From NCBI RefSeq assembly GCF_001598795.1, contig NZ_BCZP01000038.1:1-32000 (forward strand): 32,000 bases of DNA. Direction: 5' to 3'. The DNA comes from Delftia acidovorans NBRC 14950 (GTDB lineage: Bacteria; Pseudomonadota; Gammaproteobacteria; Burkholderiales; Burkholderiaceae_C). Position 1 is the first letter of the stretch; every line of letters starts with the position of its first letter. The translations under genes were made by a program, and so were the position numbers. The notes beneath the pieces are model-generated. The model ran no database searches. It saw only the letters and a list, made by a program, of their open reading frames with translations, and was not told the DNA's origin. This document shows, in pieces, positions 14,421 through 24,393 of the stretch.

Positions 14421-15080
14421 TCATGCCAGCGGCCCCGGCACACCCACCTCCCGCGACCTCACCCACTCCTCATTGCGACCACTGGCCTTGCGCCCGAACT
14501 CCGCTTCGAACTTGGCCAGGGCCACGGCGGCCTTGGCATCGTTGTGCATGTCGGTGTCTTCGCGACCATAGGCCCGGTACAGCATCCAGTGCACCAGAGC
14601 GAAGTGCAGCTCCGGCCGGATCTCGGGCTTGTCCACGCAGGCGCGCATGGGCTTGAGCGGTAGCCGCTGCACGGTCAGACGCAGTTCACCGTCTGCTGCA
14701 GGCCTGGGCCACAGGTGCAGCTTGCCGGTGGTCATTCCGGCCACCAGGCGCTGCGGCACGTCCTGGCGCTCCTGGAACTGCCAGCCCGGGTGGTAGCAGT
14801 CCATCTCGTCCACAGAGATCTCGCAGACCTCCTGGCCGTTGATGAAGGCGCGCAGGATGCGCACCACCCTGCTGTCCAGGTCCACCGTCTCGGCGCCGGC
14901 CAGGAAGGCGATGCGGCAGATAGGTGAGACCGAATCGCGCAGCAGCTGGCCACGGCGGCAGGCCTCGACCTGGGCCTCGTTGGCGTAGATGGTCAGGAGG
15001 TCGTCCGAGCAGTACGGCTTCTGGTCATCCAGGTCGAAGCAGTCCTGACGGTACTGCTTGATCAGGTCGTCGAGGGTCAT
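14421..15080 (-). CDS. Putative head-tail adaptor / head completion protein, 219 aa
   Basis: MTLDDLIKQYRQDCFDLDDQKPYCSDDLLTIYANEAQVEACRRGQLLRD... This N-terminal pattern is typical of phage adaptor/connector proteins, and the gene lies downstream of the capsid genes. The assignment rests on pattern and synteny only. Confidence 0.55.
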   Translation of the reverse strand: MTLDDLIKQYRQDCFDLDDQKPYCSDDLLTIYANEAQVEACRRGQLLRDSVSPICRIAFLAGAETVDLDSRVVRILRAFINGQEVCEISVDEMDCYHPGWQFQERQDVPQRLVAGMTTGKLHLWPRPAADGELRLTVQRLPLKPMRACVDKPEIRPELHFALVHWMLYRAYGREDTDMHNDAKAAVALAKFEAEFGRKASGRNEEWVRSREVGVPGPLA

Positions 15081-18360: not shown

Positions 18361-20595
18361 TCAGCCCCGCGCGCCGTCAGCGGCCGGCGTCTCGATGCCC
18401 TGGCGCACGCCCAGCAGCGGGCTGTCGGGGCGCAGCGGCGTCAGCGGGTCGGTGTTGTTGGGCACGGCGCCAGGGTCGGGCTGCTGCTGGGGCGTGATCC
18501 AGCCCGAGGGCTGCGGAACGATGGGCGCAGCATCCTGGTCGACATAGCCGCCCGAGCGCAGCAGCCCGTCGGCGACTGGCGCCGCGCCGGGGTTCAAGGC
18601 GAGGACTTGGGCGGCCTGGGTGCCGCTGTACAAGGTGTCCACGTTCACGCCCACGGTCTGTGCACGCGCCCTGCCCGCCTCTGCATCGGTCTTGCCGGCC
18701 TGAGCCTCCAGCAGCTTGGCCTTGGCCTGCAGCGTCGGGTCCTGGCCCTGCTGGGCGCGCTGAGCCTTCTGCTCGTCCGTGTACTGGAAGTTGGTGGGGT
18801 CCAGGCGCTGGCCCTTGCACAGCTCGGCCGCCAGCTTCGCCGGGTCCAGCTCGTAGACGGGATTGGCCGACACCTGCAGCAGCGTCATCAGGAACTGCTG
18901 CTGGGCGTCGCGCTCCACCAGAGCCGAGCTGGCGCGCACGTCGATCTGGAAGTCGCCCTTGATGCTCTCGTCGTCAGAGTAGGTCATCATCCAGTCGAAG
19001 TACCGCTGGATGTGGGGCCGCGTCATGTAGTCGTCGAACCGCTTGGCCAGGCGCCGCAGCACGCTGGTGGCGTTGTTGTTCTGCATCTGCATGCCGCCCA
19101 GGGTGTTGGGCGCATCGCCGCGGATGCCCTGCAGCATGGCCGGCATGCCCGTGGTGTCCTCGGCCATCTTCAGGGCGAACTGAATGGTGTTCATCAGCGT
19201 GACCTGGGCGCTGGGCACTGTGAAGGCGTTGAATGCTCCGCGCACATCCGAAACGTCCGCATTCGCTTCGGCACGCCAGATCTTCCCCGGCCGCAGACTC
19301 CAGACGCCATCTTCCGGTGTCACACCGTTCCCGATCACCACCTGAGGCGCTGCTGACAGGCCGTTGTTGTCCATCATGGCGCGGGCTGCACCATTGAGCA
19401 TGCGCTGTGCCGTGCGGACCTGCCGGCTGATGCCGACACCCCAGGGCATGCCAGGGCGGCGCTGCCAGGCCAGCACGTCATAGGGGAACTCGCCATCGTC
19501 CTGGGGACTGAGCACGACCTTGACCAAGCGGTCGTTGATCATCACCGCCATGGTGGGCACGCGGTCCTCGTCGCCCTCTTCCATCTCCACCCCCAGGCGC
19601 GCCAGGTGCTCGCGTGCGCAGTGGCCGTAGAAGATCCACATCTCAAACTCGTTCTCGCCCGGCCGGTAGACGGCTTCCGTGCCCTCGCGGGTGCGGGCCG
19701 GGCCTTCGCGCAGCACGGCCAGCAGTTCGGCAGTCTCGTAGCTGGGGTCGGCCAGCATCTCCTTGATCTGGCGCGGGCCGATGTTCTCGCGCTCCCACGT
19801 GTAGCTGCCGTTGTGGATGTTCTCCCCGCAGGACGGGTCCGGGAAGAAGTTCCAGGCGTCAATGCGCTTGGAGCCGGGTTTGATCTCATCGAACTTGACG
19901 AACTGAGTGGTCTGCGTCACGGGATCCTTGATGGCCATCCGGCTGGTGCGCATCACGGGATAGGGTCCCTTGAAGACACCGGAGCCGATTCGCGCCGAGT
20001 CCTCGATCAGCTGCCGCATTTCCCCGTGCCAGTTGCTCTCGACCAGCGAATCCTCGATCGCGCGCTGCATACCCTTGGCGGCTTCGGCTGCATTGCGGAT
20101 CTGCTCCTGGACGAATTCCTCCACGGTCTTCTGCTTGTAGATCCCGCCCATGGCGTCCATCAGCCGCTGGCGCAATGCTGGGCTGAGCGTCGGCAAAGGC
20201 GTGGCCTTGATCTCCCAGGCCCGATCATCCGTGGGCAGCAGCATGTCCGCCACGCGGGCGCTGGCCGCATCCGTGTAGGGGCGCGTGATGTTAAGGAACA
20301 CCACCGACCGGGCCGGGCCCTGCTGCCTGGTCTGCCCACCGATGACGGCCGCCTTCCTGCTGCGGTACAGCTGGTTGGCGTTCTGGAAATTGCGGTTGGC
20401 GTCGTCGATGCCCTGGTAGTGCTCCTCGTCCTCGGTCCACTCCTCCTCGATGCCCGAGCCGGCACGGCCGGCAATGGCCTCGCGGCGCTTGGACAGGAGC
20501 GTCAGGACGAACTCGGCGCGCAGGTCGCGCTGGGGCTCGCCGCTGTCGTCGTGCTGCTGGGCCAGCAGGCCCCCATGGTTGGTGGTGGCTTGCAT
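18361..20595 (-). CDS. Portal protein, 744 aa
   Basis: Its ATG lies 1 nt after the terminase large subunit stop. Size and synteny (terL-portal-scaffold-capsid) fit a portal protein. Confidence 0.8.
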   Translation of the reverse strand: MQATTNHGGLLAQQHDDSGEPQRDLRAEFVLTLLSKRREAIAGRAGSGIEEEWTEDEEHYQGIDDANRNFQNANQLYRSRKAAVIGGQTRQQGPARSVVFLNITRPYTDAASARVADMLLPTDDRAWEIKATPLPTLSPALRQRLMDAMGGIYKQKTVEEFVQEQIRNAAEAAKGMQRAIEDSLVESNWHGEMRQLIEDSARIGSGVFKGPYPVMRTSRMAIKDPVTQTTQFVKFDEIKPGSKRIDAWNFFPDPSCGENIHNGSYTWERENIGPRQIKEMLADPSYETAELLAVLREGPARTREGTEAVYRPGENEFEMWIFYGHCAREHLARLGVEMEEGDEDRVPTMAVMINDRLVKVVLSPQDDGEFPYDVLAWQRRPGMPWGVGISRQVRTAQRMLNGAARAMMDNNGLSAAPQVVIGNGVTPEDGVWSLRPGKIWRAEANADVSDVRGAFNAFTVPSAQVTLMNTIQFALKMAEDTTGMPAMLQGIRGDAPNTLGGMQMQNNNATSVLRRLAKRFDDYMTRPHIQRYFDWMMTYSDDESIKGDFQIDVRASSALVERDAQQQFLMTLLQVSANPVYELDPAKLAAELCKGQRLDPTNFQYTDEQKAQRAQQGQDPTLQAKAKLLEAQAGKTDAEAGRARAQTVGVNVDTLYSGTQAAQVLALNPGAAPVADGLLRSGGYVDQDAAPIVPQPSGWITPQQQPDPGAVPNNTDPLTPLRPDSPLLGVRQGIETPAADGARG

Positions 20596-20596
20596 G

Positions 20597-21901
20597 TCAG
20601 TACCCTATCTCGTTGTCCAGTGGCTGCCAGCCGCCGCCCCGAGGAGCGACGGGCCGCTGCTGCTGTGAGCGCAGCATGTGCTCGGCCGATTGAGCGATGT
20701 AGCGGAAGTTGTCGGCGCCGTGGCTGTACTGGTCGTGCAGCGGTCCCATGGCCTCGCCGGTCTTGGTGCTGACGTGGCGCTGATACCGCTTCAGGCATTC
20801 CAGCAGGCGCGCCGTCTTGGCGGCGTCGAAGTAGCAGCGCGGGAACAGCATGCGGGCGGCCTTGATGCCCTCTTCCACATCCAGCGGGGCCAAGCACAAG
20901 ACCTGCCGGCGCCCCAGCTCGCGCAGCAGCATCTCTGCGTTCTTGCCGGTCTGCGGGTTCTTGGTCTTGCCGTCGTGCGGCAGGTAGTCGATGCCCCAGC
21001 GATACGGGCGCTTCTCCAGTTGGGTCACATACCAGTCATAGGTGTGGTGGCTGTCTTCCAGGTAGTCGATGACGCGCACGTCCTGCGGGCCGACCTGGAC
21101 CATGGTGATGGTCATGGCGTCGTTCCAGCCCAGGTCCCAGACCGTGTGCACGGGCAGGCGCGGGTCGTAGGGGACGCGGCAGGCCCGGCCGTCGGCATAA
21201 AGGTGCTCCACCTCGTGGCGGTAGATGGCGCCGGCGGCCACCTTGCGGGCCTTACCCTCCCAGATGTGCTCGTAGTCGTCCTTGAGCATGGAGCGCTTAG
21301 CCTTCTGGCGCTCGTCCTCCAGCACGACTGGAAACCAGGGGTTGTCGCGCCAGTTGATCTGGCAGACCCACGTGTCCGGGCTGGGCGTGGCGATGAACCG
21401 CTGGTAGGTCTCGTCCGTCTCCATGTCCGGGTTCAGGGTCAGCCAGATCTCGGAGCCTTCCTTGCGGATGGTCGGGATCAGCACGTCCCAGGACTTCTTG
21501 CTGACGCCGTGGGCCTCTTCCACCCAGACGATGTCCACGCCCTCGAAGGACTTGATGGTGTCCACCGTGTGGGACTGCAGGCCCGAGAACAGGAACAGCG
21601 AGCCGTTGATGCCCCGGATCTCGGAGTCCAGCACCTCGAAGAAGGCTTCCAGGCCCAGGCGCGAGATGGTGTCCTTCAGCAGGCGATGCACCGAGTCCTT
21701 CATGGACCGCTGGATCTCGCGGGCGCACAGCACGCGCAGCGGCCGGTCGGCGGCCATGGCCAGGAGGACAGCAGCGACAGCCCAGGACTTGCCGCCGCCA
21801 CGGCCACCGTGCATGACCTTGTAGCGCCTGGGCGAGAACAGGGGCTGCAGCTTCTCGGCCAGCTGCAGCTTGGTGAATGGGAGCTCGGCAGGCGCGTTCA
21901 T
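20597..21901 (-). CDS. terL: Terminase large subunit, 434 aa
   Basis: Walker A-like HGGRGGGKSWAV near the N-terminus, typical of PBSX-type terminase large subunits. A C-terminal nuclease-type region is present. ATGA overlap with the small subunit gene. Confidence 0.9.
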   Translation of the reverse strand: MNAPAELPFTKLQLAEKLQPLFSPRRYKVMHGGRGGGKSWAVAAVLLAMAADRPLRVLCAREIQRSMKDSVHRLLKDTISRLGLEAFFEVLDSEIRGINGSLFLFSGLQSHTVDTIKSFEGVDIVWVEEAHGVSKKSWDVLIPTIRKEGSEIWLTLNPDMETDETYQRFIATPSPDTWVCQINWRDNPWFPVVLEDERQKAKRSMLKDDYEHIWEGKARKVAAGAIYRHEVEHLYADGRACRVPYDPRLPVHTVWDLGWNDAMTITMVQVGPQDVRVIDYLEDSHHTYDWYVTQLEKRPYRWGIDYLPHDGKTKNPQTGKNAEMLLRELGRRQVLCLAPLDVEEGIKAARMLFPRCYFDAAKTARLLECLKRYQRHVSTKTGEAMGPLHDQYSHGADNFRYIAQSAEHMLRSQQQRPVAPRGGGWQPLDNEIGY

Positions 21902-22596
21902 GCGTCGTCGTCCTCCCGCGCAGCAGGCCGCACGAACTCGACAGCGATGCGGGCTACGCCGCCCTCCCCTGGCCCTGTGCCCACGGGATCGACCTTGTCC
22001 ATGCCGAAGGCGGTTCGCTCCATGTCCACAACGATGCGCAGGCTCTCGGCCAGCACCTTCAGGGTCTTGGAGCGCTCAGGCAGGCTGATGACGGCCTCCA
22101 GCAGCTCGCCGTAGCGGTCGCGCCCGGGCTTTTCGCCAGGCGTCACCACGGCCGCAGCCAGCTCCTGCAGCTTGGCCAGCGTGGCCGGGTCGGTCTGCTG
22201 CTCCAACTCGTCCATGAGCCTGTTGGTGAGCTCGCGAACACGGCGCGCGTCCTTGCGATGGCCCAGCCGAACGTCAGCCACAGCCTGGGCATTGCCGTCG
22301 ATGACAGCCCGTTCCCGGACTTTGGTATCCGCGGATACCTGGCTGGATACCGCCGCCCTGGATACCAGCGCATCAGCCTTGGCCTGGATCTTCTGGGACA
22401 GGTCGCGCTCCCAGCCATCCCGCTTGGCGCGCTTGTTGATGGCGCCGTGGGTGATGCCGTTCTCGTCGGCGATCTGGCGAAGTGTCTTGATGCCGGCCCG
22501 GTAGTCCAGCTCTATGCGCTCCCAGTCAGGGGAGCGGGGGCCGGGGGCTGCGCCCCCTGCGCTGGGGGCTTGGTCGGGATGCGGTGAAGATGCCAT
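21898..22596 (-). CDS. terS: Terminase small subunit, 232 aa
   Basis: N-terminal HTH-like WERIELDYRAGIKTLRQIADENGITHGAINKRAKRDGWERDL, a recurrent terS signature. It lies immediately upstream of, and is coupled to, terL. Confidence 0.8.
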   Translation of the reverse strand: MASSPHPDQAPSAGGAAPGPRSPDWERIELDYRAGIKTLRQIADENGITHGAINKRAKRDGWERDLSQKIQAKADALVSRAAVSSQVSADTKVRERAVIDGNAQAVADVRLGHRKDARRVRELTNRLMDELEQQTDPATLAKLQELAAAVVTPGEKPGRDRYGELLEAVISLPERSKTLKVLAESLRIVVDMERTAFGMDKVDPVGTGPGEGGVARIAVEFVRPAAREDDDA

Positions 22597-22634
22597 GCCC
22601 GGAGTTTCCCGGGCGCGTGTCTTTTAGGCGAACC

Positions 22635-23696
22635 CTAGCCGGGGGACTTTGGAGTCGGTATTTTCTCTGTCAGCTTAGTAACGACTTCTATCAATCCAAA
22701 ACTCGCGCTATCACAGCCGTGTTGTGTATCGGCAGGGGTAAATAACTTCTGCGCCAACTGCCCCTTAATAGTATTCTTAGACTCTTCAGGCATTGCAGCA
22801 AGATAGGGCGTTATTGCATTTAGATCCATTGCCTTGCGTAGATAGGAGTGCTCTTGGGAACGATGAAGCGCAGATTGCTTGGCCGTGTATGCTGCAATAA
22901 ATGTAAAAAAAGCTGCCACGGCCAAACGAACCAAGACATGTTGAGTCGTCCGAAGATCAAATTCCAATATCACAAACAACAAAACCGAGAAAAATCCAAT
23001 ACCACACATAGTAATTAAAGAAACTCGTCGATAAAAATCCGCAGCCTTCTTTTCTATGGTTGCATTTTTCATATACTCCATCGTCAATCCACTGGAAGCC
23101 ATCTCAGAGATCAAAGCATTTAAATGCTCCGACGATGCAAGGACACCTGCTCTGTATTGTTCTATTTTCTCTAATGCTTCATCATTTTTATTTGATGCAT
23201 TTTTCTCTAGCCTTTTCATTAAAGCGTCGAGACTTTTATCTGCATTATTGCTATATTCTTCGTATTTAGCTCTCCAGCCAGCGGCTTTCGACTCCAGCTC
23301 ATCGATACGACTTAAAAGATTTCTTATTTTACCATCTGCAACAATCGGAAAATTAATTGCCCCCAAGAATGACTCACAAAATTCTCTGAGTTGCTTCGCA
23401 GATTCAAATAGGCCACTTTTTTCAATATCAGCATTCAATTTATTACTTTTGGAAAACAGCCTTTCAATTCCAGAACAAAAATTCATTGTATTGTGGACTA
23501 ATTCTTTCTCCAAAATCCCCCTTGCATCAGAACTATTCCGCTCATGATCTTTCGATAGAGATTTTTTTAGATTCAGACCATAATTAACATTCTCATGAAA
23601 ATCACCAGGCAACCCCCTCAATTTGTCGAGTATTATATCAATTTGACGATGTAAAAATTCCTTTTCAGTATCACTTAGAAATTTATCGTTTGACAT
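22635..23696 (-). CDS. Strongly AT-rich moron: 353-aa protein with helical N-terminal domain and two adjacent TM helices
   Basis: ATG 23696 with a GAGAGG SD in an AT-rich upstream region: MSNDKFLSDTEKEFLHRQIDIILDKL... TM pair RVSLITMCGIGFFSVLLFVILEF / VLVRLAVAAFFTFIAAYTAKQ. Codon usage is completely unlike the neighbours (A/T third positions). Confidence 0.85.
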   Translation of the reverse strand: MSNDKFLSDTEKEFLHRQIDIILDKLRGLPGDFHENVNYGLNLKKSLSKDHERNSSDARGILEKELVHNTMNFCSGIERLFSKSNKLNADIEKSGLFESAKQLREFCESFLGAINFPIVADGKIRNLLSRIDELESKAAGWRAKYEEYSNNADKSLDALMKRLEKNASNKNDEALEKIEQYRAGVLASSEHLNALISEMASSGLTMEYMKNATIEKKAADFYRRVSLITMCGIGFFSVLLFVILEFDLRTTQHVLVRLAVAAFFTFIAAYTAKQSALHRSQEHSYLRKAMDLNAITPYLAAMPEESKNTIKGQLAQKLFTPADTQHGCDSASFGLIEVVTKLTEKIPTPKSPG

Positions 23697-23805
23697 TTAT
23701 CAACCTCTCTTTTTTACGAAAGCATAGCTCCAATACCTCATTGTAAAGAATGAAGCCAAACTGCGCAGCCAAATGATCGCAATGGATGCGACAGCTAGTC
23801 CCCTG

Positions 23806-24393
23806 TTAATTGATCGTACCTGTAGGGACTGTTGAATTTCGTGTCGACTGGATCATTGCACCAGCCAGCAGGTCCATCTGCGGGCTGGGCTCCACCCGGC
23901 GCCCCTCCAGCGCCTTGAGCTTGCCTTCCAGCTCCTTGATGCGCGCGGCCATCTCGCGGCGGGTGGCGGCCTGCTGGAGCTGCAGTTCCTGTGCCAGCAG
24001 GCCGACGTCGTGCTGCAGCTGAAGGTTGCTGTGCTGCATGGCGTTGCCCTGGGTGCGGAGGGCGATGATGCGCAACTCGCGGGGCCAGATCCGCAACTGC
24101 TGGTCGCCAACCTCGATCAGCGTCATGCCGTCATCGAGGTCTGCGAAGTAGACCGGACGCGGCGCCCCGGGACCCTTGACCAGCTCGTACACACCATCGG
24201 TGGTCCGCCGCAGGATGCCCTCGACATCGATCATCCGGGAGACGTGGTCGTCGATGATGTGATAGCTCTTGCCGGTCAGGTCCATGAGCCGCTGTCGTGT
24301 GATGTTCTGGCCGAGATGCGCCATCTCCAGGATGTGATCCCAGATGATTTCGCGTGTGGTGCGTTCGTCGTGCTGTGGCGTGGTGGTGGTCAT
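23806..24393 (-). CDS. 195-aa protein with putative winged-helix N-terminal half and C-terminal coiled coil (possible regulator)
   Basis: ATG 24393 with GGGAGAA SD: ...ITRQRLMDLTGKSYHIIDDHVSRMIDVEGILRRTTDGVYEL...ELQLQQAATRREMAARIKELEGKLKALEG. It is the last GC-rich early gene before the packaging module. Confidence 0.7.
   Translation of the reverse strand: MTTTTPQHDERTTREIIWDHILEMAHLGQNITRQRLMDLTGKSYHIIDDHVSRMIDVEGILRRTTDGVYELVKGPGAPRPVYFADLDDGMTLIEVGDQQLRIWPRELRIIALRTQGNAMQHSNLQLQHDVGLLAQELQLQQAATRREMAARIKELEGKLKALEGRRVEPSPQMDLLAGAMIQSTRNSTVPTGTIN

Follow-up and report, generated by a model that had tools for sequence, protein, structure and literature searches.

A low-GC gene between the phrog_8117 gene and terS

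The window analysed here, a stretch of 32,000 nucleotides (nt) from Delftia acidovorans NBRC 14950 (contig NZ_BCZP01000038.1, positions 1 to 32,000), carries a cassette of about 1.2 kb with a low guanine-plus-cytosine (GC) content, located between a phage gene matching phrog_8117 and the small terminase subunit gene terS. The cassette, delimited at 22646..23847 by flank alignment, by the junction of the empty relative L125 and by the GC profile, has a single gene, an open reading frame (ORF) of 353 residues with an ATG start (22635..23696, minus strand, coordinates including the stop codon), which is referred to below as the target. The ORF list contains no other long ORF in the low-GC block. 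Genes for DnaB, RusA and NinB, a 171-residue ORF and the 195-residue phrog_8117 gene (23806..24393, minus strand; 2.3e-36; function unknown) lie upstream on the same strand. Downstream, after a 38-nt spacer, the 232-residue terS (21898..22596, minus strand; phrog_1206, 'terminase small subunit', 1.2e-64) is followed by the large terminase and portal genes.

The GC content of the target ORF is 39% (46, 36 and 35% at the first, second and third codon positions), against 65% in the remainder of the window, with third-position values (GC3) of about 90% in the flanks and 92% in terL. Over 300-nt segments, the GC fraction falls from 0.64-0.69 to 0.34-0.45 across the target block and then recovers, making this block the only long part of the 32 kb with less than 50% GC; two short dips occur near 11.2 kb and at 13.9-14.3 kb. 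This compositional anomaly is real and far beyond chance, as the first-pass annotation of the sequence had recognized when it singled out one low-GC gene between the early genes and the terminase. The Shine-Dalgarno-like GAGAGG recorded there is likewise present on inspection (23704..23709, minus strand), 7 nt 5' of the target ATG, within a cassette-borne upstream region of 109 nt (23697..23805, minus strand) that also contains a weak TACAAT -10-like hexamer.

The cassette has nucleotide-exact borders

Seven IMG/VR prophages whose flanks are 89-96% identical to the window at the nucleotide level align to positions 19000-22645 and from 23847 upward, never between. The related locus L125 (related loci are designated L followed by a number) represents an exact empty site, in which the flanks meet within 2 nt (...GATGATCCAG TAA/CCCCCGGCTAGGGTTCG..., the slash marking the junction). 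The corresponding junctions of the window read ...ATGATCCAG/TCGACACG... on one side of the cassette and ...CCAAAGT/CCCCCGGCTAGGGTTCG on the other. This empty site bears out the earlier proposal of a discrete single-gene insertion. The change in composition at both borders is as abrupt as had been described, whereas the positions first given, about 22635 and 23800, are replaced by 22645/22646 and 23847/23848 from the alignment.

The insertion affects the coding sequences at both ends. On the upstream side, comparison of the junctions with L125, L074 and L132 revealed that the final 13 codons and the stop codon of the phrog_8117 gene (23806..23847, minus strand) are supplied by the cassette and substitute the native stop of the empty-site relatives. 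On the terS side, a conserved boundary motif, CCCCCGGCTAGGGTTCG (22629..22645, minus strand), donates the last two codons and the TAG stop of the target ORF. In 41 of 83 related loci, where terS identity is just 51-97%, a copy of this motif with up to three substitutions precedes the estimated start of terS by 28-107 nt. Unrelated co-directional cargo ORFs also end in the conserved flank, as ...PPG*, ...APG* or ...SPG*, with a common TAG in CCCCCGGCTAGGG; they are found in L074 (4462-4962), L123 (4321-4962), L126 (228-842) and L132 (about 2100-2440), as well as in the window (22635-22645). Since these unrelated ORFs all stop at the same TAG, the boundary constitutes a shared 3' end for exchangeable cassettes. 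A repeat search at the cassette borders detected no att-like direct repeats, and neither the cassette nor its borders had a match in Rfam.

The slot is a hotspot for cargo and defence genes

The occupancy of the slot was surveyed in 80 viral contigs with terS homologues. In about 16 relatives with both flanking genes, the phrog_8117-type gene and terS are separated by 14-140 bp, corresponding to an empty slot; the interval otherwise measures 0.5-4 kb. The filled slots contain at least 30 unrelated protein families, mostly below the GC of the phage and on either strand. Scanning of ten large cargo proteins against defence and domain libraries revealed PADLOC matches to TIR-TM in L077 (1.8e-56), whose flanks share 91-92% DNA identity with the window, to PD-Lambda-5_A in L097 (2.6e-67) and to PD-T4-7 in L120 (8.8e-34), and a NERD plus SEC-C protein in L109. 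The phrog_8117-terS slot is thus a genuine hotspot for morons and defence genes, in agreement with the initial description of the position before terS. As closely related prophages carry known anti-phage genes at the same site, the target most likely protects the lysogen against other phages. With these cargo genes of related prophages (TIR-TM, PD-T4-7, PD-Lambda-5), to which it has no sequence relationship, it shares the insertion site, low GC, patchy spread and cassette-like exchange.

Relatives of the target occur in the slot of a Delftia acidovorans prophage (L001/L008/L141, 58% identity) and of L010 (37%), in addition to the window. In L025/L114 (30%) and L026 (27%), a family member lies directly 5' of terS, with no phrog_8117-type gene found on its other side. 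Since these occupants span at least three subfamilies, the slot has been filled repeatedly and not inherited once.

Two other types of cargo were observed. A second recurrent family, present in seven loci (L076 4318-4962, L123 4321-4962, L126 228-842, L128 4286-4951, L129 4300-4962, L140 and L143 3008-3625), consists of proteins of 204-221 residues with one N-terminal transmembrane (TM) helix, followed by the motif EKGKN.ATKED…VNDRGWL.QQ.W and a helical domain. The two members scanned (L076 and L123) had no PHROG match; this family is another candidate for a membrane-anchored defence or exclusion protein. In L073 (3183-4097), whose terS is 97% identical to that of the window, the slot encodes a 304-residue protein (GC 42%) with two N-terminal TM helices, then ...YGFYQSESQRR... 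and a coiled coil. It is reminiscent of the TM2-Y..R.S..HR motif of the target, with a different domain order, and its sole match is a weak one to phrog_36054.

The target belongs to a large family found inside and outside prophages

A protein identical to the target (P0001) is present in the public collection on three contigs only. A word-indexed protein search retrieved two relatives with the target and none with a domain alignment, whereas an exhaustive HMMER search yielded 1473 cluster representatives (50% identity) at E<=1e-3 and 321 at E<=1e-10. The members typically count 340-390 residues, match over residues ~125-350 and were seen in Gamma- and Betaproteobacteria, including Vibrio, Pseudomonas, Psychrobacter, Marinomonas, Alcanivorax, Massilia and Delftia. 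Pfam domains are absent from all members, the family has no model in Pfam, NCBIfam or PADLOC, and its NCBI name is 'hypothetical protein'. Comparison with 50,697 GenBank phages by tblastn gave one weak match, at 28% identity over 140 residues, in PQ189333, a P2/186-like Vibrio phage, and the consensus domain gave none in these phages or in 72,556 plasmids. The family appears to be undescribed in the libraries searched; the literature search was limited and a recent report is possible.

All 66 family copies examined are lower in GC than their surroundings, by 14 points on average and even in hosts of 40% GC. Low GC is therefore a property of the whole family and not just a date stamp of this cassette. 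The recent horizontal acquisition first read from the composition holds for the cassette as such. The uniformly low GC of the family could stem from a steady horizontal flux, from selection that keeps expression of a toxic protein low, or from silencing by H-NS-like proteins.

Neighbour clustering of 65 family loci revealed no partner gene conserved beyond genus-level synteny. In L014, L020 and L060, the family gene lies 6-36 nt 3' of a gene for a cI-like repressor, homologous to an HTH_3 plus Peptidase_S24 protein of L001, on the same strand. This post-cI position recalls that of lambda rexAB; neither rexAB nor the P22 sie genes have a sequence relationship to the target. The family gene of PQ189333 is likewise located behind the CI gene and is followed by an OLD-type ATPase-TOPRIM gene and a DUF3427 gene. 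In this phage (L072, 3580-9020), the CI repressor, the 461-residue phrog_29215 protein, a small ORF, the OLD-type ATPase-TOPRIM and DUF3427 form an operon-like row, making up a compact defence island of this P2/186-like prophage. On chromosomes, the family copies stand alone within small variable islands, adjoining a LacI-family regulator gene in Acidovorax/Burkholderiales, near an integrase and a DUF2971 gene in Vibrio, near BrnT/BrnA in Pseudomonas, and near a TIR_2 protein and a SUKH immunity protein in Alcanivorax.

These contexts bear on the possibility that the target serves the phage itself, either in lysis timing, as a holin/antiholin-like regulator, or as a lysogenic-conversion factor altering host envelope physiology. 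Lysis genes are often located just ahead of terS in lambdoid phages. In the window, the target has the same direction as the late genes and lies 38 nt from terS, without an intervening terminator, and no lysis gene was recognized among ten other ORFs scanned against PHROGs. However, the slot is empty in about 16 relatives and contains unrelated genes in others, so that the target cannot have a core lysis function; the slot is thus dispensable and, as the family is also found outside phages as lone chromosomal genes, a lysis role is unlikely. Members behind cI in other phages, a length of 353 residues with a 220-residue cytoplasmic domain, unlike holins, and a single PHROG match to a family of unknown function, with none in the lysis category, point in the same direction. 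The assignment as a holin or lysis gene was rejected on these grounds: instead of the conserved holin or lysis regulator that the first-pass annotation had named as the outcome contradicting its proposal, the position is empty or differently filled in relatives. Any phage-serving role for the target is, in our view, improbable.

A hypervariable helical domain is fused to a conserved membrane module

A model of the target, obtained with AlphaFold2 from a 70-sequence alignment, is all-helical with a mean predicted local distance difference test (pLDDT) score of 86.5. It comprises a bundle (residues 9-114), a 128-residue helix (117-244) ending as TM helix 1, a tight turn, a helix (251-300) starting as TM helix 2, and shorter helices thereafter. 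A model of the domain alone (pLDDT 84) agrees with the full model, and the helical hairpin is found in both.

Conservation divides the protein into two parts. Residues 1-203 (23088..23696, minus strand) correspond to a hypervariable cytoplasmic helical domain, with a four-helix-type bundle (9-114) and the start of the 128-residue helix, for which the AlphaFold2 model and the family identities lead us to propose a sensor or regulatory function. Residues 204-320 (22737..23087, minus strand) form the conserved family module, identified from the family alignments and the conservation profile, with an amphipathic pre-TM helix, the two-TM hairpin and juxtamembrane helices, and would represent the effector part. 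Mean pairwise identity in the family is 13-16% in residues 1-203, 39% in the pre-TM helix, 31% in the TM hairpin and 52% in residues 273-320, the most conserved part. The target and its closest relative (P0002) share 44% identity in the N-terminal part and 77% in the C-terminal part. The helical N-terminal domain and two-TM hairpin recognized in the initial description are therefore retained, whereas the region of about 80 residues regarded as a tail includes the best conserved segment of the family.

TM helix 1 (residues 225-244; 22965..23024, minus strand) gives a 19-residue Kyte-Doolittle peak of 2.48 and is preceded by five lysine or arginine residues within 20 positions. TM helix 2 (residues 253-272; 22881..22940, minus strand) has a hydropathy peak of 1.93, four such residues after it, and the conserved Arg257 near its outer end. 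The loop between them counts about eight residues with a net charge of -1. Hydropathy and the positive-inside rule together predict an N-in/C-in hairpin with only these eight or so residues in the periplasm.

The family invariably displays Glu215, Arg223, Tyr270, His278, Arg279 and Phe319, and nearly invariably Lys/Arg273, Ser275, Gln281, Pro297, Pro303, Lys311 and Ala315; Asp291 is also among the conserved juxtamembrane residues of the module. The juxtamembrane motif reads Y..R.S..HR.Q…DL.AI.PY..LP. That the invariant residues are kept across 70 diverse members and 1473 clusters indicates purifying selection on the C-terminal module. This conservation, together with an intact ORF and the absence of an antitoxin-like partner in the neighbour survey of 65 loci, speaks against the target being a selfish or decaying passenger, whether as a toxic membrane protein through which the element secures its maintenance (an addiction or stabilisation module) or as a gene that currently serves no function in its host. 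The extreme codon mismatch with the host (GC3 of 35% versus about 90%), the occurrence of the exact protein on three contigs and the lack of a recognisable promoter would fit such a passenger, which we nevertheless regard as very improbable.

The membrane module shows a distant similarity to SLATT_1

SLATT domains are predicted to form pores as the suicide effectors of conflict systems such as CBASS, RADAR and DRT/UG17, in which known SLATT proteins work with a partner, for example a nucleotide cyclase, a reverse transcriptase, a TIR protein or an adenosine deaminase (PMC7159879, PMC9226505). SLATT_1 was the top match of the family consensus in two independent libraries (NF033634, 4e-6; PF18181, 3.2e-4), with scores below the curated cut-offs (26.8 vs 41 bits for NF033634; 21.2 bits vs a gathering threshold of 26.3 for PF18181). 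At E<=0.01, 16 of the 70 members matched NF033634 and three PF18181, the top member score seen being 26.2 bits against the cut-off of 41. These matches always adopt the same register, placing model positions ~12-104 of 132 on the TM hairpin together with the helices before and after it, and thus coincide exactly with the conserved module. They hint at a distant homology, or at a minimum at a shared design, and do not establish membership. The SLATT-like character first proposed is thus weakly retained, for the family consensus and a constant register in 16/70 members, whereas the target itself has no SLATT match and all scores are sub-threshold.

The family shares with SLATT_1 two closely spaced TM helices, an amphipathic helix before them, a conserved helix after them, and defence contexts. 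It differs by the lack of a conserved partner gene in 65 loci, by a fused hypervariable helical domain of 200 residues and by an extra juxtamembrane segment, DL.AI.PY..LP.E...K...A...F; NCBI labels its members 'hypothetical protein' and not SLATT.

The only PHROG match of the target is phrog_29215 (function unknown; 6e-9, residues 206-325), which shares the conserved two-TM and juxtamembrane module and which the protein of PQ189333 (Vibrio phage 10N.286.45.F8_PE002) matches at 1.5e-23. This protein is prophage cargo beside other defence-type genes. In contrast to the target, the 461-residue Vibrio protein has a longer and unrelated N-terminal part, and the 28% identity by tblastn is confined to 140 residues.

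Other assignments were considered and set aside. Membership in CBASS or Pycsar was rejected, as there is no cyclase nearby. The JGI names 'ElaB/YqjD' and 'ZapB' of two relatives are coiled-coil artefacts, and the matches to BrxC_helical, DUF4455 and TIGR04527 reflect sub-threshold coiled-coil similarity in the N-terminal half. The best match of the target in PADLOC-DB v2.0.0, PD-T4-6 (E 0.013), falls in the coiled-coil region and is not significant; those of family members (LmuB, JetC, ZorA) are scattered and of the coiled-coil type. When the domain profile was compared with PDB sequences, the matches (cytochrome c and GET) were all spurious. The few SLATT-annotated giant-virus proteins retrieved by Foldseek at E ~1 were not counted as evidence.

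A candidate self-contained membrane defence

The slot, the predicted topology and the conserved module together suggest that the cassette is prophage cargo (a moron) encoding a self-contained inner-membrane anti-phage protein that would act by abortive infection, an interpretation that we consider to be about evenly balanced between true and false. The proposed mechanism would proceed as follows. First, the variable N-terminal bundle and coiled coil would sense an infection cue or keep the protein inactive. Secondly, once triggered, the long helices could drive oligomerisation of the two-TM hairpins. Thirdly, a conserved polar collar at the cytoplasmic face of the membrane (Glu215, Arg223, Tyr270, Lys273, Ser275, His278, Arg279 and Gln281) may gate or stabilise the resulting pore. 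The inner membrane would then be depolarised or permeabilised, and infection would abort before progeny are produced. A low basal level of this potentially toxic protein is probably ensured by low GC and rare codons, or the gene is probably a target of xenogeneic silencing. The collar residues could serve as a pore gate, in lipid head group binding or in ligand binding.

Several observations weigh against this interpretation. Beyond the sub-threshold SLATT_1 scores, similarity between two-TM proteins can be partly compositional, and the target protein has no significant match in Pfam, NCBIfam or PADLOC, nor to any SLATT, Abi or other defence model; the PADLOC check suggested at the outset therefore gave no significant model. 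Nor did the suggested structural comparison reveal a defence-effector relative: Foldseek searches with the full model against PDB and BFVD, and with the domain model against PDB, returned nothing below E ~3e-3, the hits being generic helical hairpins and bundles. Invariant polar residues (Glu, Ser, His, Arg, Gln and Asp) could equally be the mark of a ligand-binding or catalytic site. The transcriptional setting raises a further difficulty. The TIR-TM, PD-Lambda-5_A and PD-T4-7 cargo genes of the slot are antisense to the late operon, whereas the target is co-directional with terS, at a distance of 38 nt, so that its transcription may occur chiefly as part of the late operon and not in the lysogen. 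The promoter scan found no site 5' of the target ORF and a lone minus-strand match inside it, at a frequency no higher than in shuffled sequences, and the terminator scan found nothing above chance and no terminator between the target ORF and terS.

If the target is a defence protein, permeabilisation leading to abortive infection is its most likely output from these sequence features, and non-lethal exclusion is the main rival. In the latter case, the hairpin protein would reside in the inner membrane of the lysogen and block entry of the incoming genome while the cell survives. Blocking of genome entry is described for P22 SieA, T4 Imm and HK97 gp15. The prophage cargo position and inner-membrane topology of the target are compatible with this activity, as is the location of other family members directly behind cI, the classic place of lysogen-expressed exclusion genes; several other cargo genes of the slot also encode small membrane-anchored proteins (the one-TM family of seven loci). 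P22 SieA, itself a protein of the inner membrane, suffices for exclusion (PMC10883804). However, the target exposes only about eight residues to the periplasm, and some 85% of it, including the hypervariable part, is cytoplasmic, which is a better fit to intracellular sensing than to interference with an injection apparatus. Moreover, the best, if weak, similarity of the conserved module is to a predicted pore-forming effector domain. We consider such non-suicidal exclusion unlikely.

A bolder reading, which we put forward only tentatively, is that the family represents unrecognised and widespread one-protein immune sensors. The fast-evolving helical domain would directly recognise a phage component and switch on the fused membrane module, related to SLATT but distinct from it, in which the polar collar (Glu215/Arg223 and Y..R.S..HR.Q) would be a new gating or ligand-binding device. 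Such proteins would be partner-free counterparts of multi-gene SLATT effectors, and the AT-rich cassette would spread by recombination between conserved phage flanks.

Other features of the locus and of the window

The short interval between the cassette and terS belongs to the conserved flank. A 7-bp hairpin, GCCCGGG-AAAC-TCCGGGC (22597..22614, minus strand; RNAfold, -13.6 kcal/mol), adjoins the terS ATG (22596). In single-sequence folds, 12 of 15 diverse relatives have a hairpin of about -6 kcal/mol or better at this position, although its stem sequence differs among them; these folds were used as RNAalifold, applied to the alignment of the terS leaders, missed the hairpin through misalignment. 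The stem variants include GCCCGGG, CUGCGG, GGCCGG, CCCCG, GCGCC and UCUCC, and the loop resembles AACACU. The hairpin is part of a conserved non-coding element before terS, present in the window (22597-22645, minus strand) and in L073-L145, which consists of CCCnGnCTAGGGTTCG(A/C)C, 10-15 variable nt and then the hairpin. This element, for which Rfam has no match, could be a translational operator, a pac/terminase site or the boundary at which the cargo slot recombines.

The packaging module is mosaic, as shown by comparison of the window (20597-22596) with the Delftia relative L001 (11095-13238). The portal gene is about 92% identical to that of this relative. TerS of the window shares 51% identity with that of L001, except for the first 230 nt (76% nucleotide identity), a similarity that continues without a break into the 3' half of the target gene. 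TerL differs in type between the two (434 residues vs 481), with no nucleotide similarity.

Two smaller GC dips were also observed in the window. A second low-GC island (13833-14408, plus strand; probable start near 13923; 47-54% GC) is antisense to structural genes and lies between a gene of 440 residues (12508..13830) and an adaptor-like gene (14421..15080). Its product, of about 161-191 residues, has one TM helix, a helical C-terminal part and no PHROG match; the island is probably another moron, and L001 contains two small antisense genes at the matching place. The third dip (11141-11524, minus strand; about 49-50% GC) corresponds to a 127-residue ORF with no PHROG match, adjoining a 326-residue protein (10168-11148) with a C-terminal TM helix that matches phrog_5820 (function unknown).

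Implications for prophage cargo and SLATT-like effectors

Whatever the function of the target, these data define a cargo slot with nucleotide-exact borders in which unrelated cargo ORFs use the stop codon of the conserved flank. The slot can thus serve in practice as a bait with which to find more defence genes in prophages of Comamonadaceae and Pseudomonas. Membrane defences that are carried by prophages and have a SLATT-like effector are of a known kind; what is new here is the partner-free form, with its fused variable domain and extra juxtamembrane segment. If the target protects its host, a compact single-gene membrane defence of about 1 kb, unseen by Pfam, NCBIfam and PADLOC v2, would be added to those already described. 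The natural N-terminal variation of the family would then be ready material for mapping recognition by the sensor, and the target would represent a SLATT-like effector able to work without a signalling partner.

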